A stretch of 64,000 nt of DNA, taken from assembly GCA_964643545.1 (NCBI GenBank), contig CAZXTE010000001.1, positions 85,839 to 149,838 on the forward strand, written 5' to 3'. A program made the position numbers and the translations under genes. Source of the DNA: an uncultured Candidatus Saccharibacteria bacterium (GTDB lineage Bacteria > Patescibacteriota > Saccharimonadia > Saccharimonadales > AWTP1-31). Below the pieces are notes generated by a model. It ran no database searches and was not told the origin of the DNA. It was given only the letters and a program-made list of their open reading frames with translations. This document shows positions 3,820 to 62,100 of this stretch, one piece after another (position 1 is the stretch's first letter; every line of letters begins with the position of its first letter).

Positions 3820-4623
3820 TTATTGAGAGCTTCGTAATTCTAGCGTTAAACACTTAACACCACCGCCAGACTTTTGGTATTCAGATATTTCGCAGGGATG
3901 AAGGGTCATCCCCAGAGCTTGGTATTTAGCTATTAGTCCAGTCGCTTTTGCCGGTATGACTATGTTCTTACCATCGCTCATGGCGTTCAGGCCATAGGCG
4001 ACCGCATCTTCGTCGCTTGCTTCAATAACATTTGGAACAAGCTTATGAATTTGTTGCAACGACTCTTTCGTGAATGCTCCTGGGTAAAGCGCAACTGTAT
4101 CTTTACTGACAATGGTTAAAGCAGTGTCTAGGTGGTAGAACCGTGCATCGGCAAGCTGTAGGCTGACGACTTGCACGCCAAAAAAATCAGCCAGCTCGGC
4201 GTGTGCTGGCTTGTCAGTTCGCCAAGGGTAGCCCGCAAATAAGATGTCGTTCCAGAAAAGCGCATCGCCTTCACCTTCAAAGTCATATTTTGGGTTGTAT
4301 AGATCTTTGTAGCCGACTGAGCGGAACCAAGCCTCGAACTTAGCTGTTTCTGGCTGTCGATCTGGTTGTCGAAAGCGAGGAAGGGCTACTTTGCCATCGC
4401 GGAGCAGTGCGCCATTTGCGGTAAAGACCATATCTGGCAGACCGCTGGCTGGCTCGATAAGCTGCACATCCCAACCTAATTTTTCTGTATAGATTTTATA
4501 CAAATAATTCCATTGAACCGTCGCTTCGTGTTTGTTGACCTGGTTGTCGGTGTGCATCCAGGGGTTAATTTCGTACTCGATGTCAAAATGCTCTGGTGCG
4601 CACATTAGGATGTTTTTGCTCAT
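3820..4623 (-). CDS. amidinotransferase-fold (guanidino-group modifying) enzyme, DDAH/arginine-deiminase-like
   Basis: I chose the start at ATG 4623 (MSKNILMCAPEHFDIEYEINPWM...); the track ORF extends to 4719 without support. YHLDTALT and the C-terminal GGGVKCLTLEL provide the catalytic Cys context typical of this superfamily. Confidence 0.8.
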   Translation of the reverse strand: MSKNILMCAPEHFDIEYEINPWMHTDNQVNKHEATVQWNYLYKIYTEKLGWDVQLIEPASGLPDMVFTANGALLRDGKVALPRFRQPDRQPETAKFEAWFRSVGYKDLYNPKYDFEGEGDALFWNDILFAGYPWRTDKPAHAELADFFGVQVVSLQLADARFYHLDTALTIVSKDTVALYPGAFTKESLQQIHKLVPNVIEASDEDAVAYGLNAMSDGKNIVIPAKATGLIAKYQALGMTLHPCEISEYQKSGGGVKCLTLELRSSQ

Positions 4624-9901: not shown

Positions 9902-10435
9902 TTATTCGTTGTTCTTTGGCTGTTGCGTAAAGTAGTTAATTTCGTTTACTACGTCTAGAAGAGCTTGGGCACGAGCTTTTTCATCAGTAATCTGGTTCGC
10001 GGCATCGTATGCAGACTGAACAAGAGACTGATCGTCACTTGCTTGGATAAGCATCATAATTGTCCGGAATTTTTCCTCGGGCGTTTGGTCTAATTTCCCT
10101 AACAACGGCGAAAGGCTTTGAAGTGCTTGTTGTTTGAGGCTGAGAAGATCACTTGAGCCGGTGCTCGCAGGTGGCTCAGCAGTGGGCATTGTCGAGGTGA
10201 TATCTGGAGCTGTCTTATCGAGGGGTTGATCTGCTACCGATGGGACTTCGTCGACAGGACTTGTGTTATAGGGGGGCGCGTCCGCTGAAGGCGCAGTCAC
10301 ATCGGGCTCTGGTGCGACCGTGCTTGGCACAGGACTCACTGGGTCTGTCCCAAGAACCCCGCCAGTCATGGTTGGGTCTACTGGTTGAGCTGTTGTATCT
10401 TGCACTGGTTGTGCTTGTGTTGTGTCGTCTAACAT
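9902..10435 (-). CDS. hypothetical protein, Pro/Thr-rich N-terminal half with a helical C-terminal domain
   Basis: Start chosen at ATG 10435 (MLDDTTQAQPVQ...). No family recognised. Confidence 0.5.
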   Translation of the reverse strand: MLDDTTQAQPVQDTTAQPVDPTMTGGVLGTDPVSPVPSTVAPEPDVTAPSADAPPYNTSPVDEVPSVADQPLDKTAPDITSTMPTAEPPASTGSSDLLSLKQQALQSLSPLLGKLDQTPEEKFRTIMMLIQASDDQSLVQSAYDAANQITDEKARAQALLDVVNEINYFTQQPKNNE

Positions 10436-10527
10436 TCCACCCCCGAAGTTGTATCTAGTATTATACTTGATAGTATATAGCAAGAACTGTAAAAGCAATA
10501 CCGTTTTACGGTGCTATAGTAGAACCT

Positions 10528-11046
10528 ATGCACGCATTTTGCTATGTCTGTGGGACCGAAACTACAGACCGCGATGAGAGAAGCTGGTACTGCAGCACCT
10601 GCCAGCAGCGATACTACGACAGCCCACGACCCGCCACCGACATTGTATTTTTTGACGAACATAACCGGGTGCTTTTGGCGAAGCGAGCACTGGATCCTGC
10701 AAAGGGTACCTGGGACACCATTGGTGGTTTTATAGAGAATCGGGAGACTACGCAGGACGCCCTCGTTAGAGAAATTAAGGAGGAAGTTGGCTTACAACCA
10801 GGAGACTACTCTGAACCCCTCTTCAATGCCGAGTATCTTGCTGAGTACCCCTGGGGAAAAGTAACGTATGACGTACTCGTTCTCAATTATGTGGCCCGCA
10901 TAAAGCCCGGGGTTACCTGTAGGCCAGCTGATGATGTAGCGGAGGTGGCCTTTTTTAATCTGCAAGACATTGATGAGCTCGAATTTGGATTTCCAAAACA
11001 CAAAAAAATTATTACTCGCGCCGCAAAAAAATTAGGCATAAGCTAG
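10528..11046 (+). CDS. NUDIX hydrolase with N-terminal zinc ribbon
   Basis: CYVCG...CSTCQ zinc ribbon; Nudix box GGFIENRETTQDALVREIKEEVGL. Confidence 0.85.
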   Translation: MHAFCYVCGTETTDRDERSWYCSTCQQRYYDSPRPATDIVFFDEHNRVLLAKRALDPAKGTWDTIGGFIENRETTQDALVREIKEEVGLQPGDYSEPLFNAEYLAEYPWGKVTYDVLVLNYVARIKPGVTCRPADDVAEVAFFNLQDIDELEFGFPKHKKIITRAAKKLGIS

Positions 11047-11084: not shown

Positions 11085-12113
11085 TTGCTTGATGACTTAA
11101 AATTTATTCACGAAAAAGATCCACAAGATGCGCTGGGTGTAGTTGAGAAACAATGGCAACAGCTTGAACACCAATTTGATGTAACATTTGCGCCGTCAAA
11201 CGAAATTCGTAACGTCGTTCTGGCAGGCATGGGAGGCTCGGCATTGCCAGGTGTCTTTTTTTCGTCTTGGCCCGGCATGAATGTCCCATTTGAGATCGTT
11301 AGAAATTACGAATTACCCAATTATGTAGACAAGAACACACTTGTCATCGCATCGAGTTACTCAGGTAATACGGAAGAATCTCTTTCTGCACTGGCAGTAG
11401 CTGAGACAAAAGGCGCACAGATAGTTGTTATTGCCGCTGGTGGCCAGCTTTTAGACCATGCACATCAGAAGAGCTATCCATTATTTCAAATTCCAGGTGG
11501 CGTACAGCCAAGAATGACGTCATTCTACTTTCTTGTTGCACTAATACAGCTGTTTGAGTCGCTTAAACTTATTGCCGCTGGCTGCCTGTCTGACCTAAAA
11601 ACGACCAGTCCCTGGCTAAAAGAAGAGATACAAGCGTGGACAGCTGAAGTGCCAGCCAGCAAGAATCCTGCAAAGCAACTAGCGCAGGAGTTGATGGGAA
11701 AAACAGCCATTATATATAGCGGTCCTAAGCTTTTTCCGGCAGCAAACAAGTTTAAAATCTGTATTAATGAAAATGCCAAAAACCTCGCATGGGCGAATCA
11801 GTATCCTGAGTTTAGCCACAATGAGTTTATTGGTTGGAGCAGCCACCCAATCCAGAAGCCATACGCAGTCGTGGAAATTCGTTCCAATCTGGAACACCCA
11901 CGTGTACAAAAACGCTTTGAGCTGTCTGAACGATTGCTTTCGGGCAAGAGACCAGCCTCCAACGTCATTGTTCCAAAAGGTGAGACGTTAATACAGCAGC
12001 TGTTGTGGACCGCTGTTCATGACGATTTTGTCAGTATTTACCTCGCACTACTTAACGGCGTTAACCCAACACCAGTTGAGCTGGTAGAGAAGCTCAAAAA
12101 AGAACTTGGTTAG
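11085..12113 (+). CDS. bifunctional phosphoglucose/phosphomannose isomerase (SIS domain)
   Basis: TTG start with GGAGGG 7 nt upstream. GMGGSALPG, SYSGNTEE, and a C-terminal PGI/PMI-type domain. Confidence 0.8.
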   Translation: MLDDLKFIHEKDPQDALGVVEKQWQQLEHQFDVTFAPSNEIRNVVLAGMGGSALPGVFFSSWPGMNVPFEIVRNYELPNYVDKNTLVIASSYSGNTEESLSALAVAETKGAQIVVIAAGGQLLDHAHQKSYPLFQIPGGVQPRMTSFYFLVALIQLFESLKLIAAGCLSDLKTTSPWLKEEIQAWTAEVPASKNPAKQLAQELMGKTAIIYSGPKLFPAANKFKICINENAKNLAWANQYPEFSHNEFIGWSSHPIQKPYAVVEIRSNLEHPRVQKRFELSERLLSGKRPASNVIVPKGETLIQQLLWTAVHDDFVSIYLALLNGVNPTPVELVEKLKKELG

Positions 12114-12114
12114 A

Positions 12115-12645
12115 CTAGATGGGTTTGTTTTTTAGGTGTAGTTTGTAGCCTATGTAGGAGGTTGCTAGGTGCAAGCCAAAGTAGATCAGAAAAATGTATA
12201 CATAGTCGAGCAATGGTAGGCGAACAAATAACAGGCTGGCAACTAAGCCGCCGACAATGTAGTCAGACTGGTCAAACGGAAACCAGCTTTCACCAGACTT
12301 TATGCCCATTTGTCGTTTGAAGAAGCTCTCTATAGCGTCACCAGAAAGAGCGCCAAAACCCATGCTTGCACCCACAACTGCATATGATGCAAGGGTGTCG
12401 GCTGACGAGATTTGAAAGAGAATATACGCTTCGAAGCAGGCAACAACGCCACCTATAAATGTCCCAAATACCAGCCCGCGCCACGTTTTATTATCGCCGG
12501 ATATTCTTTTCCCTTTGATTTTTTTGCCGAAGTCCATAGGCGTCTTCCATCGGTTTAGGTAGGGGATTTTGTTAGCGAAAACAGGTGCCATGTTAGCAAG
12601 GCCGGCAGGTAAAAAGAACAAAAATAACCAGAAGACACCAGCCAT
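12115..12645 (-). CDS. CDP-archaeol synthase (CarS/DUF46) family CTP-transferase-like membrane protein
   Basis: 176 aa, polytopic. LPAGLANMAPVF...PMDFGKKIKGKRISGDNKTWRGLVFG closely matches the archaeal CarS signature PIDFGK...G-x-RILGDGKTWRG. Confidence 0.8.
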   Translation of the reverse strand: MAGVFWLFLFFLPAGLANMAPVFANKIPYLNRWKTPMDFGKKIKGKRISGDNKTWRGLVFGTFIGGVVACFEAYILFQISSADTLASYAVVGASMGFGALSGDAIESFFKRQMGIKSGESWFPFDQSDYIVGGLVASLLFVRLPLLDYVYIFLIYFGLHLATSYIGYKLHLKNKPI

Positions 12646-17072: not shown

Positions 17073-18416
17073 ATGATTATTGATTTACTAGACGAATTTG
17101 CCCGCGCCGGTGGCGGTGGGTCCGGTGGAGGCGGGGGAGGAGGCGGCGGCTCCGGTGGATCGGGTGGCGCTGGTGGTCTAGGTGTTCTCCTGTTCTTCCT
17201 GGGATACGTACCAGTTAGTTTTACCGTTAGTGCAGCAACAAAAAAATGGAGCCGAGCTAGTGCTTTCGGTTTGGGTGTCATGGAGTGTATTATCATTTGT
17301 TTTCTCAGCATCGCGGCGCTTAAGGGGTTTGGTGCAATAGTTTCGATAGGGGCAGTCGTTGGTCTGTTCGGTGGAAGATTGGACTTAACTGGAAGACTAG
17401 GAAAGCTTGCGAAAGCATCAAGAGAAAAGCTCAAAAAGGCTGCGGTGGCAGACCCTGCTTGGGACGAGACAGCGCTGCGTGCAGAAGTTGAAAAATGCTT
17501 TATGCAGTTTCAGCAGGATTGGAGCACGTTCAACTTTACACGTATGAAAACGTATCTTGCACCAGACTATTTCGAACATATGAGATTGGTTTTGTCTGCA
17601 TTGCATGCAATGGGTCGTCGCAACGAAGTAGCCAACCCAAAGCTCTACGACATAAACTTCATTGATGTTCAAGATGAGTCAGGCAAGGAAAGGGATGCAT
17701 TTACAGTTGCGCTATTCGCCGGTGCACAAGATAAGCTTCTTGATACGCTGGATAATAACAAAGAAATTTACGCGGACCAGAGTATGTTTACAGAGTATTG
17801 GCACTTTAAGCGAGTATCTGGGCGGTGGATCTTATCTAATATCTCGCAAGTAACTGAATCAAAAGATGTGCGATCCGACCCATTAAAGAAGTTTGCTTCG
17901 ACCAATGGATTCTTTTACAATGCCGACTTTGGCTGGTTGCTATTACCAAAGCGGGGCCAGCTTTTCTCGAAAGCTCAATTTCGTGTTTCTGATGTAAACA
18001 ATCACGTCATTGGTTTGTATAGAAATGTGCTCGTAGAGTTCTATAGCTATAGCGCACGAAAGCAGTCATCAAAGTACTTTGTGATTGCACAGGCTGTACT
18101 GCCTAAAACCTATGGCAACATTGTTGTTCGTCGTGACAAAAGTTTATTCCAGCGAGACATTCGAGGCCTGAATAAGTTATCAATGGAGGGCATGGAGTTT
18201 AACAAAAAGTATGAAGTATTTGCGACTGATGTGGAGCAAGTCACTAGCTTTGAGCTGTTGCACCCGGCGTATATGGCAAAGTTGATTGACCTCGACTATG
18301 AGGTTAACATAGAGGTAGTCGATAACGTTCTGTATCTGTATAGCACAGACAGTAAGACATCGTATGACTCAATGTTACTGCTGCTGAAGGCAGCTTTTGA
18401 CGAACTAAAATTATAA
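17073..18416 (+). CDS. membrane protein with N-terminal poly-Gly tract, Tim44-like domain and DUF3137-like C-terminus
   Basis: AGGGGSGGGGGGGGGSGGSGGAGG, then two TM segments, then DPAWDETALRAEVEKCFMQFQQDWSTFNF...YFEHMRLVL (Tim44-like pattern). The C-terminal FNKKYEVFATD...LLHPAYMAKL is DUF3137-like. Confidence 0.7.
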   Translation: MIIDLLDEFARAGGGGSGGGGGGGGGSGGSGGAGGLGVLLFFLGYVPVSFTVSAATKKWSRASAFGLGVMECIIICFLSIAALKGFGAIVSIGAVVGLFGGRLDLTGRLGKLAKASREKLKKAAVADPAWDETALRAEVEKCFMQFQQDWSTFNFTRMKTYLAPDYFEHMRLVLSALHAMGRRNEVANPKLYDINFIDVQDESGKERDAFTVALFAGAQDKLLDTLDNNKEIYADQSMFTEYWHFKRVSGRWILSNISQVTESKDVRSDPLKKFASTNGFFYNADFGWLLLPKRGQLFSKAQFRVSDVNNHVIGLYRNVLVEFYSYSARKQSSKYFVIAQAVLPKTYGNIVVRRDKSLFQRDIRGLNKLSMEGMEFNKKYEVFATDVEQVTSFELLHPAYMAKLIDLDYEVNIEVVDNVLYLYSTDSKTSYDSMLLLLKAAFDELKL

Positions 18417-18860: not shown

Positions 18861-19262
18861 ATGGAAAAAGCACGTTCAATCAAACCACTCGCAGGATTCG
18901 TAGAATTTATTAGAGAGCAGGGCGTAATTGGCTTAGCAATTGGTCTAGTCATTGGTACTGCCGTGAAGAGCTTGGTAGACTCATTAGTTGCCAACATCGT
19001 GAACCCTATTATTGGGCTCATCCTCGGTGGTGTGGACCTTAGTCATAAATCACTCTGCATTCGAAGCGTAGATGGTGCCTGCACCACCTATCTCACATGG
19101 GGCTCGTTTGTCAGCTCGCTTATTAGCTTTGTAACAATTGCGGCGATTATCTATTTTGTGTTCAAAGGATTACGTTTGGATAAGCTCGACTTGGACAAAG
19201 ACCTTAAAAAGGGCATGACCAAAGGTACGGCCGGTGCTGCTTCAAAACTAGCCAAGAAATAA
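18861..19262 (+). CDS. mscL: large-conductance mechanosensitive channel
   Basis: GFVEFIREQGVIGLAIGLVIGTAVKSLVDSLVANIVNPIIG is the MscL signature. Confidence 0.93.
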   Translation: MEKARSIKPLAGFVEFIREQGVIGLAIGLVIGTAVKSLVDSLVANIVNPIIGLILGGVDLSHKSLCIRSVDGACTTYLTWGSFVSSLISFVTIAAIIYFVFKGLRLDKLDLDKDLKKGMTKGTAGAASKLAKK

Positions 19263-19378
19263 CGAAAATACAACGAATAATGCTAGCGCTTTTTTGCTAA
19301 TGTGCCTATACTTCTATAACTAGAGGCTGGTGGGGCACTCAAAAGGAGGAACACTAGCAGCAGACAATAATTATTCAG

Positions 19379-19405
19379 CACACGGTAACTCACGTGTGTT
19401 TTTTT
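19379..19405 (+). terminator. terminator-like hairpin plus T7 run directly upstream of the RBS of the transcarbamylase gene (candidate attenuator)
   Basis: CACACG (19379..19384), 8-nt loop, CGTGTG (19393..19398), then TTTTTTT (19399..19405), then AAAGGAGGG and GTG 19418. Confidence 0.5.
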
Positions 19406-19417
19406 AAAGGAGGGAAC

Positions 19418-20467
19418 GTGGCAGAGATAGAGCGGGTTGGTGGATTACATCCAAAGATAAACGGTGATTTTGAACAGGCGCATCTTCTTTCTATGCATCA
19501 ATTTACGCCTGATGATATAGGTGTTTTTCTTGAAGAAACGCTTGTAGCACAAGCTGCAATTCAGCGTAAGGGACAGTGGGGGCTTAATCTTTTGCCGGGT
19601 GCTGAGCTAAAAGCAGTCATGCGACAGCCTTCAACCAGAACTGGTGGTAGTATGGCTACCGCTATGACTAAACTTGGAGGGAATGCCCAGGTTATTAGCG
19701 GTATGGCGGCCTCTTCTGAAGGAAAAGGCGAGACACCCGAAGACTCGTGGATTGCTTTTGCGACCCAAGCAGATATTATTGGTTGTCGAACGCCCGAAGC
19801 TGGTGGGGTAGAGGTTGGGGCGATAGCTATCGATGACGCGGTAGAGAGCGGTAAGTTGCGGCGTCGTGTTCCCGTTATTAATCTTGGCGATGGCGTAAAC
19901 GAACACCCATCCCAGACCTTGGGCGACCTCTTTACAGTGTATATGAAATTCGGTGAATTTGCCGGATTGACAATTGTGACTGTTGGTGACCATGAGCGTT
20001 ACAGAGCGCACCACTCGCTAATGATCGGCGCCTCTATCTTAGGTACTAAAATAATTGCTGTCGAGTCATCTGCGTCACCCGTTCCTGATCATTACGCGGA
20101 TCTTCTAGGAGATAAACTGGAACGTACAACAGATATAGATGCGGCAATTCAAGCTGCCGATGTTTTGTGTATGGGGAGGAACCCAGATGAATACAGTGGA
20201 GAAGACGTTGATGAGAGGGCAAGAAGTGCCCAGTTGTCACAGGATTACGCAGGCTGGGTGGTTGATCGCGAAAGATTGCAGCAAATGAGGCCATCTGGTA
20301 TGGTTTTGCACCCTCGCCCTCGTGGAAAAGAGCTTGATCGAAGCATAGACGGTGACCCAAGAGCTTACGATGTGCAACAGATGGCGAATATGATCCCGGC
20401 ACGTATGGCAGCCATTGCGCTGCTGATGGGGGTTTCGATCAAGGACGCCGTGACATCCAGCCAGTAG
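19418..20467 (+). CDS. aspartate/ornithine carbamoyltransferase family protein, ATCase-like but divergent
   Basis: GTG 19418 with AGGAGGG upstream; the track start at 19394 lies inside the hairpin. STRTG (canonical STRTR), EHPSQTLGD (HPxQ), GDHERYRAHHSL (ATCase GDxxxGRxxHSL) and LHPRPRG (ATCase HPLPR). Confidence 0.8.
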   Translation: MAEIERVGGLHPKINGDFEQAHLLSMHQFTPDDIGVFLEETLVAQAAIQRKGQWGLNLLPGAELKAVMRQPSTRTGGSMATAMTKLGGNAQVISGMAASSEGKGETPEDSWIAFATQADIIGCRTPEAGGVEVGAIAIDDAVESGKLRRRVPVINLGDGVNEHPSQTLGDLFTVYMKFGEFAGLTIVTVGDHERYRAHHSLMIGASILGTKIIAVESSASPVPDHYADLLGDKLERTTDIDAAIQAADVLCMGRNPDEYSGEDVDERARSAQLSQDYAGWVVDRERLQQMRPSGMVLHPRPRGKELDRSIDGDPRAYDVQQMANMIPARMAAIALLMGVSIKDAVTSSQ

Positions 20468-20482
20468 GCTATACTGCTTACT

Positions 20483-20872
20483 ATGAATGACGAATGGATA
20501 ACTAGACTTACACGAGAACAGTATCGTGTACTGCGAGAGAAGGGAACCGAAGCACCATTCTCGGGTAAGCTGCTACATAATAATAAAGATGGTACCTATG
20601 GGTGCGCTGCGTGTGGCGCAACAATTTTTACGAATAAAGAGAAATACGACTCGAATACACCCGGTCTAGAAGGGTGGCCAAGTTTCTGTGAAGTATCTTC
20701 TCAGGGGGCCGTAGAACTAGTGGATGACAACAGTTTAGGCATGCAACGAACAGAAGTAGTCTGTAAAAAGTGTGGTAGTCATCTTGGGCATGTATTCGAT
20801 GACGCATCGTCACCAACCGGAACACACTACTGCATAAACTCGGTCGCACTCGACTTCAAACCAAAAGCCTAG
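20483..20872 (+). CDS. msrB: peptide-methionine (R)-S-oxide reductase
   Basis: Two CxxC zinc pairs (CAACG, CKKCG) and catalytic HYCINS. Confidence 0.93.
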   Translation: MNDEWITRLTREQYRVLREKGTEAPFSGKLLHNNKDGTYGCAACGATIFTNKEKYDSNTPGLEGWPSFCEVSSQGAVELVDDNSLGMQRTEVVCKKCGSHLGHVFDDASSPTGTHYCINSVALDFKPKA

Positions 20873-21201
20873 TCGCTGTACTTTGTGCCCCAGTCAGCCA
20901 TTTGCTGCAAAACTGGCAATAAGTCTTTGCCCTTTTTTGTAAGACTGTACTCACTCCTGGGGGGTACTTCTGCGAACGATTGTTTTGTAACAATCCCATT
21001 TTCCTCAAGGTCATCCAATCGCTGAGAGAGAGTACGGGGGCTAATATGCTCCAGCGACTTTTCTAGCTCGCCAAATCGTTTAGGGCCTGATAACAGATTA
21101 CGCAGTATCAGTGCGGTCCATTTATTGCCGACTACTTTTAGGCAGCCAGCAACACAGCCTGCGTTAGGCTCTAGGGGGCGAGGGGACTTTGATAATTTCA
21201 T
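20869..21201 (-). CDS. HxlR-family winged-helix transcriptional regulator
   Basis: GNKWTALILRNLLSGPKRFGELEKSLEHISPRTLSQRLDDLEENGIV is the HxlR pattern. Confidence 0.9.
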   Translation of the reverse strand: MKLSKSPRPLEPNAGCVAGCLKVVGNKWTALILRNLLSGPKRFGELEKSLEHISPRTLSQRLDDLEENGIVTKQSFAEVPPRSEYSLTKKGKDLLPVLQQMADWGTKYSD

Positions 21202-49696: not shown

Positions 49697-50431
49697 ATGA
49701 ATGTAGCAAGAGAAAGACTGGACCAGGTATTGGTAAAGCGCGGTATTGTCTCTACGCGTAGTCAGGCGGAGAGCTATATAAAACTTGGGCAAGTAACAGT
49801 AAATGGGCGTGTTGTACAAAAGTCAGGGATGTTGGTGGGAGTTGCAGATGAGATTTTGCTGCACGCAACAGACCGCTATGTCAGTCGTGCGGCGCTAAAG
49901 CTCGCATCAATTGCTGAGACGTTTTCGTTAGATTTTTCAAACAAGGTTGTTTTAGACGTTGGCTCTAGCACGGGTGGCTTTACCGACTACGCATTGCAGC
50001 ACGGTGCGAAGAAGGTGATTGCGGTAGAACTTGGCAAAGAACAATTACACCCCAGTCTGCGAGGGAACGCAGCCATTGAACTGCATGAACAAACAGACAT
50101 ACGAAATCTTGGGGAGATAAGTGAGCGAGTTGATATTGTTGTCGCTGATGTTTCGTTTGTAAGCTTGCGTGATATATTACCGTCGGTCATAAAAATTGCT
50201 CCACAAGCTCAGTTTGTCATTATGGTGAAACCTCAGTTTGAAGCACAACACAACGACTTAAAACACAAAGGCGTCATAAAAAACGAACGTGTTCGAAGAG
50301 ATATTTTGTCCGCCTTCGAGACTTGGGCAAAGCAGCATTTTATTATACTCAACAAAGCAGATTCTGCTGTTGCAGGTGCACGAGGCAACAAAGAACGCTT
50401 CTATTTACTACGGGTTCCTGCAGGGAGATAG
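49697..50431 (+). CDS. tlyA: TlyA-family rRNA 2'-O-methyltransferase
   Basis: S4 domain RLDQVLVKRGIVSTRSQAESYIKLGQVTVNG and SAM motif LDVGSSTGGFTD. Confidence 0.9.
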   Translation: MNVARERLDQVLVKRGIVSTRSQAESYIKLGQVTVNGRVVQKSGMLVGVADEILLHATDRYVSRAALKLASIAETFSLDFSNKVVLDVGSSTGGFTDYALQHGAKKVIAVELGKEQLHPSLRGNAAIELHEQTDIRNLGEISERVDIVVADVSFVSLRDILPSVIKIAPQAQFVIMVKPQFEAQHNDLKHKGVIKNERVRRDILSAFETWAKQHFIILNKADSAVAGARGNKERFYLLRVPAGR

Positions 50432-50459
50432 ACATCCCCCTTATGCTACACTAGGCCGT

Positions 50460-51119
50460 ATGTACTTCGTTAACCGAGAAGAAGCTGGCAACATGCTTGC
50501 GAAAAAGATGAGCCGCTATCAAAAACAGCCGAGTGCAATTATCGCGCTTTCCGACGGGGCTGTGCTAGTTGCCGCGCCGATTGCTCGCGTGCTCGATTGT
50601 CCGATTATGATGCTCATGACGGAGCCTATTAAGGCTCCAGGAGAACCAGACGCGGTCGCAAGTATTAATCAAGAGGGCACCTATGCTACGAACCCAAGAT
50701 ATTCCACAGGTGAAATAGAAGAATTTGACATGGAATATCGCCAAACATTCGAGCAAGAAAAGATGGAAAAGCTTGCATATATGCATCGTATGCTTGGCCA
50801 AAAAGGTGTCATTCGACATGAGTTGCTCCGAAACAGGAATATCATCCTTGTTTCCGATGGGCTAGAGAGTGGCTTTCTGCTGGATTCGGCAGCTTTGTAT
50901 TTAAAAACAATAAAGATCAATAAGATAATTGTCGCAACACCCCTCGCCAGTGTGCCGGCCGTTGACCGAATGCATATTTTGGCAGATGACCTCTTTTGTC
51001 TAAGTGTTGTCAGTAACTACATGACCACCAACCATTATTATGAAGATAATATGATGCCGTCACACGAGACGATTATCGCTACGGTGCAGCAAATTGTAGA
51101 TGAGTGGCGAAGTAGGTAG
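50460..51119 (+). CDS. phosphoribosyltransferase-like family protein
   Basis: Start chosen at ATG 50460 (MYFVNREEAGNMLAKKM...); the track start at 50289 overlaps tlyA. The PRT-like loop reads ILVSDGLESG (canonical vDDGiATG). Confidence 0.7.
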   Translation: MYFVNREEAGNMLAKKMSRYQKQPSAIIALSDGAVLVAAPIARVLDCPIMMLMTEPIKAPGEPDAVASINQEGTYATNPRYSTGEIEEFDMEYRQTFEQEKMEKLAYMHRMLGQKGVIRHELLRNRNIILVSDGLESGFLLDSAALYLKTIKINKIIVATPLASVPAVDRMHILADDLFCLSVVSNYMTTNHYYEDNMMPSHETIIATVQQIVDEWRSR

Positions 51120-54605: not shown

Positions 54606-56426
54606 CTATTTAACATAGTTATCTATAGTGCTGTTAATTACGCGCACCGCAGGTGGTGAGAAAGTAGATGCACCATAAATGTTCATTATGTTGCTTTGAG
54701 AACCACGGCGCCAGTTGCCATACATACACGTGTTGAACTGTTGATCGGTGGGCTGCCAGAATGGGTTGGGAGAGTCGTCTTTGCAGTTAGCAGTAGCCCG
54801 TTGAGAACCTGAGGTGCCGCTATAGGCATACTCATCCCAAAGCCCCATTAAATGACTTAGTTCGTGCAGGGCCGCAGTTGCGCTTGAGGCGGTTGCATAT
54901 TTTCCATTAATCATGGCTACACCAAAGGCACCTGCGCTTGGGGCATCACCCCAAAGAGTAACTACTTTATCGGCAGTAACACCGGCAGCAGAGAGTTGTG
55001 AGGCCACATTTGCAGGGTCGCAGGATACGGCGCGGCCGGGGTTTGCTGGGTCGGCAGCACAAGTGACGGGTCGCTCCAGCCTAACTTTATGAATCACAAT
55101 AACATCTTTTCGGGTGCTATACGGTGGGGTAGAAATTATTTGACCGGCAGCACTACTCGAGGCTCTGTCAAAGGTGACTTGATCAGTATAGTTTGCGCCA
55201 GCGATAACGATGTGCAACTTGCGCGTCGTTGATGTGGTGCTTGTCTTGAATGCACCCAAAGCTTTGCCAACTAGTTCAACTTGGTCTGGTGGAAGGACAC
55301 CGGTAACTGGTAGCTTAAGGAACGCCTGGAAGTTCTTAATGGCGCGTTCGGTAGTGGAATCAACAACTCCGTTTACTTGCAGGGTGGATAGTGCAGCTTT
55401 TAAGTTGTATTGCACTGCAGAAACACACTGGTCTGAGCGGCCAACCTTGTCTCTGTAGCCAAGCGAAATAGTGGGATATGCCTTATTACAAACGTATGGG
55501 TTAGGTGAGCGTGTGTCTGGCGGCTGCGTTGTTGAGCCAGATTTGAACGGTCCAAACACCTTAGTGATATCATCCATCCCTTTACTATCCAGCTGGCCGG
55601 TTTGAGCTAGCCCAAAGAAGCCTTGGAAGTATTTAATATATTGAACTGTTGCTGCATCAATAACCCCAGTGAGCGCTGGCGCCGAGTAATTTTGAGAAGC
55701 TGATTGCAGGGCGTACTGTAGGGCGGTTACGCATTGATCGGTTCGCCCAGCTACATTGTTTCGGTCGCCAGACTTTAGTAACGCTGGGTAGGGTTTGTTG
55801 CAAACGTGAGGGTTGGTTCGTGGTCCAGAAGGGGGCTGAGTGGTTGCTGCCTTTTTAACCTGAATGTTAACAGAGCATATAGCGGTTGGGTGCCAGCTGC
55901 CACCAGCTTGCTTGAGTCGAAACTTAAAGGGATATGTACCTTCTGCAGCAGGAGCTTTGTAGCTACCGTTCCCAAGACCGGTTCGCGCATCGACGTTATT
56001 CAACCGACCAATGACATAACCGTAGCCGGAGTTGGTTCCACCGTATAGTTCCGCAGTATAGGGTGCGACGTTTGCTTCGTTACCCGCCGACCAGGTAGTG
56101 TCGTAGCTGCTGCCATTCCAGGGGACGAGCTTGAATCGCGTAGATGCCGGGGCGGCGCCACTGGCACTTGGCCATAATTCTTGACTGCTACCATTAACGG
56201 ATGGACTTCCATTGTAAACGAGGAAGCTTGCACTAAAATTTTGACCCGGCTCGACAACATTATCAGCAGCAGGCGATCCTGTTTCGAATTTAATCTGACA
56301 GTAGTCGTGGGAGTAGTCAATTGCTGACGCAGCAAAGCTAGCAACTACAAAAAACTGAGCTACAACTGCAAATGCAAACATAGTGCCTAAGAGTTTTTTG
56401 TTTAAGAATCTTGATCTTCCGGTCAC
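54606..56426 (-). CDS. cassette protease A: secreted multidomain M64-like zinc metallopeptidase with two PG-binding-like repeats
   Basis: 606 aa, GTG start. N-terminal hydrophobic signal/anchor, then a Cys-bounded beta-domain. Two repeats follow of the form NP-x-VCNK-x-YP...GR-x-DQCV-x-A-x-QY-x-L...IK-x-FQ-x-F. The C-terminal domain carries ALHELSHLMGLWDEY (HExxH-x6-DEY). Confidence 0.8.
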   Translation of the reverse strand: MTGRSRFLNKKLLGTMFAFAVVAQFFVVASFAASAIDYSHDYCQIKFETGSPAADNVVEPGQNFSASFLVYNGSPSVNGSSQELWPSASGAAPASTRFKLVPWNGSSYDTTWSAGNEANVAPYTAELYGGTNSGYGYVIGRLNNVDARTGLGNGSYKAPAAEGTYPFKFRLKQAGGSWHPTAICSVNIQVKKAATTQPPSGPRTNPHVCNKPYPALLKSGDRNNVAGRTDQCVTALQYALQSASQNYSAPALTGVIDAATVQYIKYFQGFFGLAQTGQLDSKGMDDITKVFGPFKSGSTTQPPDTRSPNPYVCNKAYPTISLGYRDKVGRSDQCVSAVQYNLKAALSTLQVNGVVDSTTERAIKNFQAFLKLPVTGVLPPDQVELVGKALGAFKTSTTSTTRKLHIVIAGANYTDQVTFDRASSSAAGQIISTPPYSTRKDVIVIHKVRLERPVTCAADPANPGRAVSCDPANVASQLSAAGVTADKVVTLWGDAPSAGAFGVAMINGKYATASSATAALHELSHLMGLWDEYAYSGTSGSQRATANCKDDSPNPFWQPTDQQFNTCMYGNWRRGSQSNIMNIYGASTFSPPAVRVINSTIDNYVK

Positions 56427-56452
56427 TTTGTTAAATCCTTTTGTTGTTATTC

Positions 56453-57067
56453 CTAGCGAACGTCTTGACCTTCAACGGTTTTAAAGTCGGGTGTATTCTT
56501 GGTAACTGCTACGCCTTTAAGAGATTGAGTCAGAATTACTTTTCCGGCGGCATCGGTAATCTTCAGTTCTACGTCATCCCCAAACCATGGAATGATTTTG
56601 GGTATCAAAATCCCGCTGGTCGACAAGCTACCATTAATTTTCTTACTCTGTTCATTAAAGCTCTCGGCGATGCTGCCCGATGGCTTTGCAAAGTTATCCG
56701 AGTACAAAGTGTCCGGGCCCTTCGTAACGGTAAGTTTATAGTCGCTTGCCGTGGTTGATGGTGTATTGGGGGCACTATTTGTGAAACGCTCCATGCTTTT
56801 GACAGAGAGTTCTGGCTTCTTTGCTTTGTCGTATACAAGGTTCAATACAAGAACCTCTATGTTCGATGCACTAAGGCGCCCAGTCTTGACGGCATCTTCG
56901 TAAGATAGTAGCGGAACGTCGCTAGACGAGTTTTTTCCATTCTTTTTCTTTTGTTGGTTAAACAAAACCCCCGCCACAACACTGACAAACAGGACGGTAA
57001 CAACAGCAATGACAAGCAGTAGTCTCTTCTTTGTCATATTTGCTTTCATATTTGTTAGTATTTCCAT
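56453..57067 (-). CDS. cassette partner B: single-pass membrane protein, paralog of 53982..54596
   Basis: Start chosen at ATG 57067, preceded by GAGGGGG; the track start is 57079. TM segment LLLVIAVVTVLFVSVVAGVLF. The C-terminal domain is alignable to partner A along its full length. Confidence 0.75.
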   Translation of the reverse strand: MEILTNMKANMTKKRLLLVIAVVTVLFVSVVAGVLFNQQKKKNGKNSSSDVPLLSYEDAVKTGRLSASNIEVLVLNLVYDKAKKPELSVKSMERFTNSAPNTPSTTASDYKLTVTKGPDTLYSDNFAKPSGSIAESFNEQSKKINGSLSTSGILIPKIIPWFGDDVELKITDAAGKVILTQSLKGVAVTKNTPDFKTVEGQDVR

Positions 57068-57090
57068 GATCCCCCTCATCTACTTAATGG

Positions 57091-59001
57091 CTACAAGAAT
57101 GACTTAATGGTTTCTTCGAGCACACGCATTGCCGGAGCAGAGAAGCCGCTTGCGTTCGCTGTCGACATAATGTTTACATCAGAACCACGATTCCAGGTGG
57201 ATGATGTGCAGCCACCGAACTGAGGATCGGAACTTCTCCAGTACTTATTCTCTTTGCCGTCCTTACAATTGTAAGTAGCAGTGTTTGGCGAATAAGAGGC
57301 GCCTGGATAGACATATTCATCGTGTAAGTTCATTAGGTGGCTAAATTCATGCAGCGCAATAAACGGGTGAAGATTCGCCGTTGCGAACTGTCCTCCAACA
57401 CCTCCAGCAGTTCCTCCCCAGGCGCTGTTGTTGTTTATGACCAATACTTTGTCATAGGGCACACCCTTAGCAGCGAGGGCCTTAGCTACTTGGTCGTAAT
57501 CACAGTACCAGTCTCTACCATCACCCGTTGAGCCGTAAGGTTTGCAGGTTATGCCGCCTACATTGACAATATGGAAAGCAATATCATTTTTATAGGTGCT
57601 ATATGGTGCAGTGCTTAAAATGTATTGAATCATCCCTTTAGCTGTACTGTCAAAGCTCCCGCCTGAAAAGTTTGCACCAGCGACAGCAATATCTAGTTTT
57701 TTGCCAGAACCACCACCACTGTTCCCGCCACCAGAACCACCACCACTGTTCCCGCCACCAGAACCACCACCGGTACCGTCGGTCTTATATGGCCCAAAGA
57801 CGGTAGCAAGACCTTCTACTTGTGCTGGTGTTAGCACTCCATCTGCTGTAGCTTTAAAGAACGCTTGGAAATTCTTGATGGCAGCCACCGTCGGTGCATC
57901 GGTTGTGCCGGTTACTTGCAGACTAGGAGTAGCTGCTTGTAGATTGTATTGCACTCCAGACACACAGTCATCCTTTCGTCCATCTGCCTTGTTCTTGTAC
58001 CCACTTTTAACGGTTGGATATGGTTTGTTGCATACGTAAGGATTGGCGCCTCGACCGCCACCGCCACCACCGCCACCACCGGGAGTAGAGGTCTTGAAAG
58101 CACCAAACACAATTTGAAAAGGATCTAGTTCGGCCGCGGTAAGTTGGCCGTTTGGTGTTGCATTAGCGCCCCCAAAGAATCTTTTGTAGTTATTAATGAT
58201 AGAGACCGTGGAGGCATCGATAGTTCCTGTTAGTGCAGGGACCCGAAGGTTAGGGTCTGAGGCTTGTAGGGCGTACTGCACCGCAGTGGCGCACTTATCA
58301 GTTCGACCCCCGCTACTGTCAGCAACCCCCAACTTCATCACCGCAGGGTAGGGCTTATTGCAAACATACGGGTTTGCTCGTACGACAGGAGGCTGCGGGT
58401 CATCATTCTTTACTTGCAAATTCCTTGAGCAAATTGCTGTTGGATGCCACGACCCACCAGCTTGCTTAAGCTGGAACTTGAACGCATATGTCCCGGGCGT
58501 ACTCGGAGCTTTGTAGTTGGTGCCATTACCAAGGCCTGTCCTGGCATCGTTACCCGCAACATTACCAATGAGGTAGCCAAAACTCGAGTTCGCACCACCA
58601 TATAACTCGGCAGTATACGGAGTTACGTTAGCGGCATTGCCGTTCGTCCAGGTAGTGTCGTAGTTGTTGCCAACAGACGGGACGAGTTTGTACCGCTTAT
58701 CGGTTGGTGTTGGTCCACTGGCACTTGGCCAAAGTTCCTGGCTGCTACCGTTCACGATAGGGCTACCGTTATATACGGAGAAACTAGCTCCAAAGGTTTC
58801 GCCGGGCTTTAGTACGCCGTCTGCCGCAGGAGATCCTGTTGCGAATATGATGCTACAGTTGTCTCTTGAGTAATCTACAGGGGTAGCTGCGAAAGCAGCT
58901 ATAAGTGAAAAGGGCACAATTGCTGCAAGGGCAAAGAGGATTACTGTTAATCTTTTTGACGCAAACTTTGGTCGATCTAATAGGTTTCTAATTTTACTCA
59001 T
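57091..59001 (-). CDS. cassette protease B: paralog of 54606..56426 with poly-Gly linkers
   Basis: Start chosen at ATG 59001, preceded by GAGGG; the track start is 59010. Same domain order as protease A. The zinc motif is ALHEFSHLMNLHDEY. Linkers are GGGGGGGGRGA and (GGGSGGGNS)n. Confidence 0.8.
   Translation of the reverse strand: MSKIRNLLDRPKFASKRLTVILFALAAIVPFSLIAAFAATPVDYSRDNCSIIFATGSPAADGVLKPGETFGASFSVYNGSPIVNGSSQELWPSASGPTPTDKRYKLVPSVGNNYDTTWTNGNAANVTPYTAELYGGANSSFGYLIGNVAGNDARTGLGNGTNYKAPSTPGTYAFKFQLKQAGGSWHPTAICSRNLQVKNDDPQPPVVRANPYVCNKPYPAVMKLGVADSSGGRTDKCATAVQYALQASDPNLRVPALTGTIDASTVSIINNYKRFFGGANATPNGQLTAAELDPFQIVFGAFKTSTPGGGGGGGGGRGANPYVCNKPYPTVKSGYKNKADGRKDDCVSGVQYNLQAATPSLQVTGTTDAPTVAAIKNFQAFFKATADGVLTPAQVEGLATVFGPYKTDGTGGGSGGGNSGGGSGGGNSGGGSGKKLDIAVAGANFSGGSFDSTAKGMIQYILSTAPYSTYKNDIAFHIVNVGGITCKPYGSTGDGRDWYCDYDQVAKALAAKGVPYDKVLVINNNSAWGGTAGGVGGQFATANLHPFIALHEFSHLMNLHDEYVYPGASYSPNTATYNCKDGKENKYWRSSDPQFGGCTSSTWNRGSDVNIMSTANASGFSAPAMRVLEETIKSFL
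57704..57772. repeat. 27-nt perfect tandem repeat (2 copies plus a 15-nt partial) inside protease B
   Basis: ccagaaccaccaccactgttcccgcca at 57704..57730 and 57731..57757, then ccagaaccaccaccg. It encodes the GGGSGGGNS linker on the minus strand. Confidence 0.9.
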
Positions 59002-59030
59002 GACCCTCATTATTATTTAAGCTTACGCTA

Positions 59031-59147: not shown

Positions 59148-62100
59148 ATGAACGACGACCAATCAGAAAATAATCAAAAATCACAGGCTGAGGTTACATC
59201 AGACGCCCCAAATGTTGTTAGTGTTGGCAAGAAAAGACGCATACCAAAATTATCCCTAAAGAAACGAACGATCACCTTGGTACTTCTGATTGTTTTGCTT
59301 ATTGCGGGTGTGGCTTGGGGTTTGCCTAAGTACCTTAATAGGAATGTCTATGCCAAAGTAGGCGACTTCACCATTACAAAAAAAGAATATGATGCTACCA
59401 AGAAATCGTGGATCAACGCATACAAAAAACCGAATACGAAACTAGATGCCAAAAATAATATCGATGCTCAAACACGTGACATTTTGGTACTGAACGCTGC
59501 GCTCAAAACCGAAGCTCAGAGGAGGGGGATTACCTACACGCAAGCAGAAGTAGATAAATATTCTTTGCCCAAATATAACGAGAAGGGTGGCAAGTTCCTG
59601 TACATTAAGTCGTACGAGCGTGACTACCAATGGACTGAACAGGACGTTATGTTGCGCCGCACCAACGACTACTTGCAGTACAAGCTCAAAGACAAGCTGA
59701 TAAAAGACAGAGTCTATTCAGAGGTGTACATACGTTGGGATAATATTCGTCTCCTGAAAACCGAGGATATAAACAAGCCAGCACCAGCAGAAGAGGAGAA
59801 GGCTGGACAGATTCTCAAAGAAAAGTACCTGCCGCTGTTCGAACAGAAAAAGTCCCCGGCCGAGCTTAAAAAAGCAGTAGATATCCGAGATGGAGATTCG
59901 TTAGAACAACAAAAGAAGGCCTATACGAGCACACGCGGGACAGGCAGTCAGTTCAGTACTATTCGAACAATCAACTTGGCGGCCAATCCTTTTAAGCCAT
60001 ATCCTGGTGATAATGGTGAAGACATGGGCGCTAAGCTAGACAGCCTCAAGAACGTTGGCGACTACACCCAGCCATTCCGTAGCAACATTGGCAAATACTC
60101 CATTATACGACTGGAATCGACTACCGGCGGTGGTTATGCTAACTGGGAGGCCTTGGTCCAACAATATGAAAAAGATGCTGGCCTGACGGATGGCAAGAAC
60201 CCGGTAATCTTGAGTTTTATAAAGCAAGCAATACAGCGAATTAGTAGCGCAATTTTTCCAAAAGCATACGCCTACCCAGACTGTACTGCGGGTGTTCATA
60301 GTATTCCTTACTATGTAACCTTGACAGATATCGACACGGGAGCGCTCCTAAATGGTTCAGTTTCGGCTTCGACGCAGCGTCATCGCCCAGATTGCGGCAT
60401 GGGACCCTACAAAGACCAAGGCTATAACCCGACTCCTTTTGTGAGTTCACCGGTGGACATATGGTTTAGCGTGTCCATGAGTGCATCTACTGGAGCGTAT
60501 GGGCCAGGATACCTGGGTATTGCGTTAGATTGTATGGGGCCGGTATGGAATCACTCCTATAATGTCCCGGGCTACAGTTTCGTTTCAGAGACGGAAGAGG
60601 CTCCCGGTCTCCCACAGCTGGGACATGGTGATAATTCACATAGTTACAACATTCAGGCGTATTTTAGGAACAACAGTCCACCAACGGGAGAAATCGACGT
60701 CATTAAAATGATTCCTGATGGATCGGGCGGTTGGCGGGAAGGGCAACCAGGAGGTAATCCGCAGATAGCCATAGGTTTGCTTACTAGCACGAACACCTCT
60801 TTGTACGCACCGGGCCTGACTCCTGGGGGACAGCAGCCGGTTTCAACTGCTAGCCCATCTGGCGGTTGGACATATCTCAGGACCGTCAATACCAATCTCT
60901 GTAATCCAAGCGCACCAGCAGCGTCTACAAGTATGTCCCTATCGGTGAATGTATTTGCAGATCCCTGTAAGCACTGGGTTCAGTTCTTCTACGAGTATAC
61001 GCCCCCACCACCGAAAGGAGACTTGCAGCTCGTTACAGAAGTTCCAAACGGTTCGGGGGGGTGGACCACCGGCAATGTGCCCGGCTCTCCCAATACCTGC
61101 GTTACGGGCTCGGGTGTACCGAGTGGCTATGACTGCAGTAACGCGAGTATTCACCCGGTGAATAACCTTGACCCAGGCCCTGGCTACTATGCATATGTCG
61201 ATGCTGCTGCTGCCCAATGGGAGTATAAAGGCTTTGTCGTTGCCTATAACCCAGGATGTAACGGACACCCAGACAGTAACGACAATGCTCCGCATCCGGC
61301 ACCAGCAGGGGCGGGGGGTAATAGCTATAACTTACGAGTATGTAAGGACCAGACTACGCAGATTCGCTTCCGCTTTGCGCCGGAGCCCAAACCATTTACG
61401 CTTACACCGAATGCGCTGTCTGCAACACCAGACGATGAAGAGTCGCCAACTGCAATAACATTCAGTACCGCAGTAAATTCATCAAGACTGATGAATCTGC
61501 CAACACCTATCGCGGCGACCCAAACCTACACGCTGAACGGGGCTCCAATTGCTGCGTGGTCAGCTGATACGTATGGAGCAAACTTTGCATCGAGCACCAG
61601 CTATACATCCTCGAAGGCTAAGGGCACTAACCCCCCTATATTAAAGGTGGGCGACACCTATTGTGTTACGGTAACAATTCCGCATGGTGCAGGGACATTT
61701 GATGGATCTACCGTTGTCTGGACATCAGGCGCCGTTACTTCAGCTCCAGCTTGCGGTGTAGTCTCCAATATGCCCTATGTCTCTTTCTATGGCAATGATG
61801 TCAGCGCCGGCGCAGCCTTTAAGCGTCCGTCTGCTTGTGTTGCTGGCGATGGTGCAGGCGCAACGATTTCCACAAACCTTAACGCTGCGAACGTAGGTTC
61901 CAGTGTGCAGTTCGCAGCCTTTGCGCTTGGCTCTATTAACACTTTTGTGTCTGCCAGCCAGCGGAGCACTACTCCCGTTGCTCCCAAGGGCCTAAGCTTT
62001 GCCAATACAACAGGCACATATGGTGGTGTGTTTGGCACGAACCCACGATGTCTCGACTACTACGGTACGCCACCATCACCAGATACGACGACAGCCTCAC

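Follow-up and report, generated by a model that had tools for sequence, protein, structure and literature searches.

Which reaction is catalysed by a protein that resembles aspartate transcarbamylase (ATCase) but breaks the signature motifs of this enzyme family? The question arose from a gene, called X here, in a stretch of 64,000 nucleotides (the window) of an uncultured Candidatus Saccharibacteria bacterium. X is a member of the aspartate/ornithine carbamoyltransferase superfamily (PF02729 and PF00185), with Pfam matches above the gathering thresholds for OTCace_N (E 1e-22, 81 bits, cutoff 29.9) and OTCace (E 4e-17, 63.2 bits, cutoff 29.4). A first-pass annotation had described it as a divergent ATCase-like transcarbamylase with an intact carbamoyl phosphate site and an altered region for the second substrate, and this description holds across the whole clade. 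The family of X is a conserved, lineage-specific ATCase-like subfamily which breaks the family signature motifs. Judged from residues and gene neighbourhoods, its most likely function seems to be a familiar one, the first committed step of pyrimidine synthesis. With moderate confidence we regard X as a divergent PyrB-equivalent of many environmental Saccharibacteria, whose product would be carbamoyl-aspartate and in which the site for aspartate binding and domain closure is rebuilt. This explanation is favoured because orthologues of X in at least five lineages lie in pyr clusters, as canonical pyrB does in other phyla.

Family membership and active-site residues

Among 5.8 billion proteins searched, 172 matched X, and the best 120 of these were 51-98% identical. 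The named organisms were nearly all Saccharibacteria metagenome-assembled genomes (MAGs), the closest being Candidatus Saccharibacteria or Saccharimonadales. Only 24 representatives of a library clustered at 50% identity matched with E<1e-30; next came ordinary ATCases at about 100-130 bits. The clade is essentially confined to Saccharibacteria. A pseudogene or a chance open reading frame (ORF) was ruled out by the large family and its conserved invariant residues.

The position of X within the superfamily was examined with profiles, sequences and a structural model. Among the NCBIfam models, X reached 155.6 bits with NF002032 (cutoff 263) and 153.1 bits with TIGR00670 (cutoff 236.95), both for pyrB, compared to 90.7 bits with the best model for ornithine transcarbamylase (OTCase). 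The PTC models were far weaker than the ATCase models, and for the knotted families 26.8 bits (YgeW, cutoff 453) and 35.6 bits (AOTC, cutoff 288) were obtained. With phmmer against the PDB, ATCases were found with E-values up to 3.6e-34 and the best OTCase with 3.9e-17. The order from phmmer and the hidden Markov models (HMMs) was ATCase, then OTCase, then YgeW and AOTC. The AlphaFold2 model calculated from the family alignment (pLDDT 93.2, pTM 0.92) was compared to the PDB with Foldseek. The top 50 matches were all ATCases and unknotted, and the best was ATCase of P. abyssi bound to N-phosphonacetyl-L-aspartate (PALA) with a TM score of 0.93 and a root mean square deviation of 2.1 Å. X is thus placed on the ATCase branch, nearest to ATCases and not to OTCases in sequence and, according to the model, in fold.

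Other assignments were rejected. A regular expression search of the protein found none of the motifs R.Q.ER, SMG, D...SMG, HCLP and H[TS]LP. This confirms the earlier statement that the OTCase blocks DxxxSMG and HCLP are absent, and together with the weaker OTC scores it excludes an OTCase. A UGTCase was rejected because HPRPR stands in place of H(T/S)LP, and a PTCase because neither motifs nor scores fit. X carries an insertion of about ten residues in the 120s region, where the knotted families have an extended loop, but the knotted families (AOTCase, SOTCase and YgeW; proline-rich loop and knot) do not fit, as the HMM scores for AOTCase and YgeW were far under the cutoffs and the top structural matches were unknotted ATCases.

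The motifs STRT, HPSQ, GD..R..HSL and HPRPR, reported in the first-pass annotation, were all recovered. Of the superfamily motifs given in a review (PMC4581275), SxRT is present as STRT, HPxQ as HPSQ, the arginine of strand beta4 as R105 and HxLP in the form HPRP. The letters STRTG instead of STRTR had been read correctly as well, but do not represent a meaningful deviation: the fifth residue is R in 44, S in 9 and D in 4 of 67 canonical ATCases, and human CAD has STRTS.

For the comparison of residues (numbered as in E. coli PyrB), 72 members of the X family, 67 canonical ATCases of many phyla and E. coli PyrB were aligned. The canonical set comprised the matches (about 30% identity) from a profile scan with the X-family alignment, dominated by the generic pattern G[DN]GxxEHPTQ. 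Throughout the 72 members the residues S52, T53, R54, T55, S80, K84, E86, R105, H134 and Q137 are invariant; the same applies to R167, R229, E233, H265, P266, P268, R269, E272 and R296. All ligands of carbamoyl phosphate are kept across the family. Of the four ligands of aspartate, R167, R229 and K84' are likewise invariant, and the fourth, Q231, has become an invariant proline. Hence, the alignment of the aspartate-binding residues gave a divided answer, with one ligand exchanged and three present. These three ligands weaken the earlier proposal that the second substrate is not a standard one. The R-x-Q-x-ER block, which had not been found before, is absent in its literal form but present in an altered form, RNPDEY, with R229 and E233 kept.

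Other positions are exchanged throughout the family. In the STRT loop M and Q are present in 72/72 members in comparison to F and E in 67/67 canonical ATCases. In the GRNPDEY block Q231 is replaced by P and R234 by Y; this P and Y occur in 72/72 members of the family, Q and R in 67/67 canonical ATCases. The 240s loop following the block is about 7-8 residues longer than in canonical ATCases and contains new invariant acidic and basic residues. Position 267 is R in 72/72 members, whereas canonical ATCases have L (47), G (19) or A (1). Furthermore, G166 is changed to Y, the residues around the R167 equivalent in GDHERYRAHHSL are family-specific (R-Y-R-A-H), and the insertion of about ten residues relative to canonical ATCases (GVEVGAIAIDDAVESGKL) follows CRTPE, after the R105 strand. 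The roles of the links E50-R234 and E50-R167 and of Q231 in the closure of E. coli ATCase are known from the established ATCase literature and the review (PMC4581275). According to the alignment, these elements for domain closure over the aspartate have been exchanged as a set. Titles of the structural matches in the PDB included 1tth, an E50A mutant. In a simple neighbour-joining tree the X family was monophyletic and branched off on a long stem, outside all 67 canonical ATCases sampled; as this placement depends on one OTC-like outgroup and a long branch, it is treated with caution and no argument is built on it.

Gene neighbourhoods and the function of X

Pyr-type surroundings of X were detected in at least five Saccharibacteria lineages (loci of relatives are given L numbers). 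The gene order is DHO_dh-X-DHOase-like in L086 and X-DHOase-DHO_dh in L123, DHOase denoting dihydroorotase. In L112 X overlaps a DHOase-like gene and a convergent DHO_dh gene is present. L109 combines X with a very divergent DHOase-like gene, a class-2-like dihydroorotate dehydrogenase (DHODH), OMPdecase and a protein of the phosphoribosyltransferase (PRT) fold with a weak pyrE match, and in L126 DHOase-like, DHO_dh, OMPdecase and X lie inside 7 kb. The copies of X in these clusters are at most about 72% identical to one another, so several lineages are represented. By identical size in bp (78625, 50257, 29989, 3316), 4-5 contigs matched between the homologue tables of X and of the pyrC-like protein; this matching cannot show absence, since the pyrC-like gene of L086 (53% identical; on a 400,967-bp contig) is missing from the list. 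No contigs matched between the tables of X and pyrF, the latter being dominated by other Patescibacteria. The same adjacency pyrB-pyrC(-pyrF-pyrD) is found for canonical pyrB of many phyla, whose pyrC is 30-35% identical to the Saccharibacteria proteins. The short pyrC-like proteins keep HxH, Lys and DHAPH, which we take to be dihydroorotase motifs. From the missing pyr neighbours, among other features, a non-standard substrate or a catabolic role had been suggested in the first-pass annotation. In this form the suggestion is not supported, in view of the orthologues in pyr clusters.

A canonical ATCase of Saccharibacteria allowed a further comparison. In the Candidatus Saccharibacteria MAG with locus L064, a protein with FYEPSTRTR, RLQKER and HPLPR is encoded at 10010-10927. 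It lies in the block AspRS ... CarboxypepD_reg-HhH-GPD, in the place where L088 carries X. AspRS and HhH-GPD of the two loci are 73% and 55% identical, in contrast to only 29% for ATCase and X. It looks as if one type had been displaced by the other at a similar locus, and this synteny suggests that canonical ATCase and X are functionally interchangeable.

If X is a PyrB-equivalent, the following mode of action can be proposed. In ATCases the 80s loop with S80 and K84 is supplied to the active site of the neighbouring subunit. As this loop is kept in X, its catalytic chain would assemble into trimers whose subunits share active sites, like those of established ATCase structures (PMC4581275). 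Carbamoyl phosphate would be bound by the unchanged set of STRT, R105, H134, Q137 and S80'-K84'. L-aspartate, the presumed second substrate, would be held by the retained R167, by R229, still paired with E233, and by K84'. The ion pair E50-R234 is replaced by Q and Y and Q231 by P; the loss of Gln231 may be compensated by Arg300, at position 267 in HPxP, or by the longer 240s loop. The product N-carbamoyl-L-aspartate would then be passed to the dihydroorotase-like enzyme, DHODH, the PRT-like enzyme and orotidine monophosphate (OMP) decarboxylase. For the organism studied here, the other pyr genes and the source of carbamoyl phosphate would have to lie elsewhere in the genome.

Several observations weigh against a function as PyrB. 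ATCases are defined by FxExSTR and RxQxER, the latter being 'found in all known ATCases' (PMC4581275), and X has M-R-Q-P-S-T-R-T and R-N-P-D-E-Y instead. R.Q.ER was detected in 0/34 locus-derived members of the X family, but in 77/79 sampled canonical ATCases. The scores of X are about 100 bits under all NCBIfam ATCase cutoffs, and X is thus an ATCase-branch transcarbamylase outside the formal definition of ATCases. Positions invariant in 67/67 canonical ATCases are exchanged for another residue in 65-72 of the 72 family members (Table 1). From mutagenesis of E. coli ATCase, E50, Q231 and R234 are known to be important both for the affinity to aspartate and for the closure of the domains. Neither in the window nor in most of the lineages sampled does a pyr gene adjoin X, which is solitary in L082, L088, L122 and L127. 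No pyr, arc or carbamate kinase gene is present within the 64-kb window, and tblastn with homologues of pyrC, pyrD, pyrF, the PRT-like protein and carbamate kinase gave no match there. Near the pyr-type clusters no source of carbamoyl phosphate was seen. According to the literature, Saccharimonadia cannot synthesise nucleotides de novo (PMC12592800), and for two complete Saccharibacteria genomes no enzyme of the uridine monophosphate (UMP) module is annotated (PMC7786006 supplement). Finally, distant X-like proteins with a degenerate carbamoyl phosphate site exist. In P0368 the site is destroyed (STRT to SSVV, HPxQ to QPIQ) and R229 is changed to A, and P0366 has SARI in place of STRT. A further distant protein, P0370, is a hybrid of canonical FFEPSSRT and HPLPR with GRRPKEY of the X type. 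These three proteins may be pseudoenzymes or evolutionary intermediates.

Some of these findings would also fit a transcarbamylase that uses another second substrate and/or acts catabolically. It would phosphorolyse an N-carbamoyl compound to carbamoyl phosphate. Carbamate kinase would then convert carbamoyl phosphate to ATP, a useful step for an energy-poor epibiont. N-carbamoyl-beta-alanine (from dihydropyrimidinase), carbamoyl-aspartate or a purine-derived ureide would be candidate compounds. We consider this explanation possible, although rather doubtful. It agrees with the family-wide replacement of residues for ATCase specificity, the extra Arg in the site, the scores under the ATCase thresholds, the missing ATCase motifs and the solitary position of X in many genomes. 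Moreover, the gene convergent with X in L126 encodes a protein passing the dihydropyrimidinase equivalog (472 bits, cutoff 393), and in one well-sampled peat lineage X adjoins xdhC, moaE and xanthine dehydrogenase (pucD equivalog passed), with genes for UGTCase-like (HSLP), OTC-like and carbamate kinase proteins 8 kb upstream in L091/L092. Catabolic ATCase and beta-alanine transcarbamylase are listed as unproven possibilities in the review (PMC4581275). On the other hand, OMP decarboxylase, DHODH and the PRT-like gene in the clusters point to the biosynthetic direction, and both carboxylate-binding arginines and K84 are kept, which fits a dicarboxylate such as aspartate. X lacks H(T/S)LP of UGTCase and the motifs of OTC, PTC, DPTC and DBTC. 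L091/L092 were the only loci with a carbamate kinase gene in the vicinity of X; there it comes immediately after the genes of two other transcarbamylases, and the xanthine dehydrogenase operon lies between it and X on the opposite strand. The narrower proposal of a new catabolic transcarbamylase, which is no ATCase and phosphorolyses the N-carbamoyl product of nucleobase breakdown for the formation of ATP by carbamate kinase, is unlikely in our opinion. Candidates for its substrate are N-carbamoyl-beta-alanine from dihydropyrimidinase and carbamoyl-aspartate from scavenged orotate or dihydroorotate. If true, X would be the 'catabolic ATCase / beta-alanine transcarbamylase' which the family review of 2015 listed as unproven.

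Two of these neighbourhoods deserve description in their own right. In the peat Saccharibacteria with L091/L092 (35-2953 and 3867-9706), genes for UGTCase-like (HSLPR, no RxQxER), OTC-like and carbamate kinase proteins adjoin a three-subunit xanthine dehydrogenase (pucD equivalog passed), xdhC and moaE. The OTC-like transcarbamylase is under all OTC cutoffs. Most simply, this trio is a purine-catabolic, ATP-yielding module of its own. Such a module is uncommon in a group whose metabolism is considered minimal. In L126 the dihydropyrimidinase/D-hydantoinase (11167-12546, minus strand) was assigned with TIGR02033 (472 bits, above the cutoff) and is convergent with X on a contig which also carries pyrC-like, pyrD and pyrF genes. 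This MAG is labelled Acidimicrobiales by NCBI, which may be a binning error.

A last alternative to the PyrB-equivalent is a non-catalytic or regulatory ATCase-like subunit, for example a scaffold for the adjacent dihydroorotase-like proteins. An inactive PyrC' supports class A ATCases, and X would be the mirror image of this arrangement. Three different kinds of DHOase-like amidohydrolase recur next to X, and the more distant P0368 and P0366 have lost catalytic residues. However, these degenerate forms are outliers with only 38-46% identity, and in the clade of X itself every ligand of carbamoyl phosphate and every catalytic residue is invariant in 72/72 members, a signature of selection on catalysis. 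A scaffold is therefore very improbable. The third kind of amidohydrolase, a very divergent protein of 415-443 amino acids without a Pfam match, is convergent with X in L109 (543-1874, minus strand) and L101 (2474-3721, minus strand); a weak match to a dihydroorotase HMM (112 bits) and a DPHxH motif were detected.

The gene and its surroundings in the window

The features of X and its neighbours are listed in Table 1. The longest ORF form of the gene starts at GTG 19394 and ends with the same TAG (20467). GTG 19418, proposed in the first-pass annotation, is the better start, because the spacing of AGGAGG and the start of the orthologue P0002 (81% identity), which begins at the equivalent residue, agree on a protein of 349 amino acids.

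Table 1 Features of X, neighbouring genes and exchanged residues (position numbers of E. coli PyrB; R, H, S, K and Q equivalents likewise)
Feature	Coordinates	Strand	Remarks
X, CDS of the divergent ATCase-like transcarbamylase	19418..20467	+	GTG start, TAG stop, 349 aa
Shine-Dalgarno AGGAGG	19406..19411	+	6 nt 5' of GTG 19418; read from sequence
MRQPSTRTGGS, phosphate-binding STRT loop	19619..19651	+	residues 68-78; F48 position = M, E50 position = Q
SSEGKGE, 80s loop	19712..19732	+	residues 99-105; S80 and K84 equivalents; K in 72/72
CRTPE	19784..19798	+	residues 123-127; R105 equivalent kept, H106 to T
NEHPSQ, carbamoyl-group binding	19898..19915	+	residues 161-166; H134 and Q137 equivalents
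GDHERYRAHHSL	19985..20020	+	residues 190-201; R167 equivalent (alpha-carboxylate ligand) kept
GRNPDEY, altered 240s-loop block	20174..20194	+	residues 253-259; aligned to E. coli T-R229-V-Q231-K-E233-R234
LHPRPRG, HxLP-type motif	20306..20326	+	residues 297-303; Arg (Arg300) for Leu/Gly267
Terminator-like hairpin and T-run between mscL and X	19377..19400	+	consensus scan only
mscL, upstream neighbour	18861..19262	+	Pfam MscL
msrB (SelR domain), downstream neighbour	20483..20872	+	Pfam; 15 nt after X, same strand
Position 48			canonical F, X family M
Position 50			canonical E, X family Q
Position 106			canonical H, X family T
Position 231			canonical Q, X family P
Position 234			canonical R, X family Y
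Position 292			canonical G, X family M

Pfam confirmed mscL and msrB as neighbours, as annotated before, and no pyr gene adjoins X in the window. The hairpin upstream of X is probably the end of the preceding transcription unit. The gap between X and msrB contains no terminator-like site, and one such site follows msrB (20915-20931; consensus scan). Co-transcription of X and msrB in the window is thus probable from the sequence. The pair recurs in several sub-clades of X (L083, L103, L108, L124, L117) and stands alone in L124 and L117. The block argS-mscL-X-msrB-hxlR-FMN_red-RNase T is kept in relatives only 50-65% identical (L083-85, L103, L108). Despite this conserved synteny, we do not consider mscL to be functionally linked to X. 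An ORF with a PRT domain in the window (50289-51119) is unrelated to the PRT-like protein of L109, and no NCBIfam model matched it.

The window has about 47% G+C and contains typical Saccharibacteria housekeeping genes. No tRNA gene and no Rfam family at threshold were detected in the 64 kb. TGA stops are rare (3/58 long ORFs), and there was no sign of recoding. At 3826-4605 (minus strand) a protein of 260 amino acids scores above the cutoff of the NCBIfam equivalog for dimethylargininase (DDAH, M. tuberculosis type; 307 bits, cutoff 300), and a homologue is found in L083 at the same place upstream of groES/groEL. DDAH would release citrulline from methylated arginine; neither OTC nor carbamate kinase is encoded in the window. 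A protein of 447 amino acids (17073-18416, plus strand) begins with a stretch of about 25 Gly/Ser (GGGGSGGGGGGGGGSGGSGGAGG); hydrophobic segments, a Tim44-like domain and DUF3137 come after it. Large proteins of 606-1177 amino acids with signal-anchor-like N-termini, among them two paralogous ORFs of about 600 amino acids, are encoded at 54606-59010 (minus strand) and 59148-62681 (plus strand) and are probably surface proteins.

Significance and comparison with known transcarbamylases

Searches of the literature brought up no account of such an enzyme from Saccharibacteria or the candidate phyla radiation (CPR). The annotation of the family is uneven, with 'hypothetical protein' at NCBI and ATCase catalytic subunit at JGI. 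Due to the label 'hypothetical', the step that commits to pyrimidine synthesis can be counted as missing when pathways are reconstructed, even in lineages with a cluster of X, pyrC, pyrD, pyrF and PRT. Saccharibacteria are usually portrayed as incapable of de novo synthesis of nucleotides, and X bears on the question whether some of them make their own pyrimidines. An ATCase without Glu50, Gln231 and Arg234 would be surprising to a specialist for transcarbamylases. Should X be a functional ATCase, the rule that every ATCase contains RxQxER and Glu50 does not hold, and the enzyme would be a natural example of a different solution for aspartate binding and domain closure, useful for both the understanding and the engineering of transcarbamylase specificity. 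With another substrate or a catabolic function, X would represent a new energy-yielding reaction in ultra-small epibionts.

The closest known system is the catalytic chain of ATCase (PyrB; E. coli, archaeal and CAD type; 1ml4, 5g1n, 1d09). Both have the same unknotted two-domain fold (TM score 0.86-0.93) and share STRT, R105, H134/Q137, S80/K84, R167, R229, E233, P266, P268, R269, E272 and R296, and orthologues of X occupy the pyrB slot of pyr clusters. In contrast, X is only 26-31% identical to these enzymes and differs by E50Q, F48M, H106T, Q231P, R234Y, L/G267R, G166Y and G292M, by ten inserted residues after the R105 strand and by a 240s loop with about eight additional residues. No pyrI was seen with X.

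Ureidoglycine transcarbamylase (UGTCase) of the Rubrobacter xylanophilus type is also a member of the ATCase branch that is no ATCase; it keeps R167 and is devoid of RxQxER (PMC4581275). However, UGTCase is defined by H(T/S)LP and S258/K261, and X has HPRPR and RNPDEY. The UGTCase-like protein of L091 (FYQPSTRT, HSLPR) is encoded by a separate gene next to carbamate kinase and is only 28% identical to X. OTCase and PTCase belong to the same superfamily and have the same carbamoyl phosphate site, and X shares with PTCase the Gln at the third position of FxQxSTRT. Differences are the lack of DxxxSMG, HCLP, the (Y/W)(G/W) loop of PTCase and the C-terminal extension in X. The short second ATCases of the HPGP type from Burkholderia have been discussed as possible catabolic ATCases (PMC4581275). 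They resemble X in the variant residue at Leu267 and in the uncertain physiological direction, but FxExSTR and RxQxER are kept in the Burkholderia enzymes and exchanged in X.

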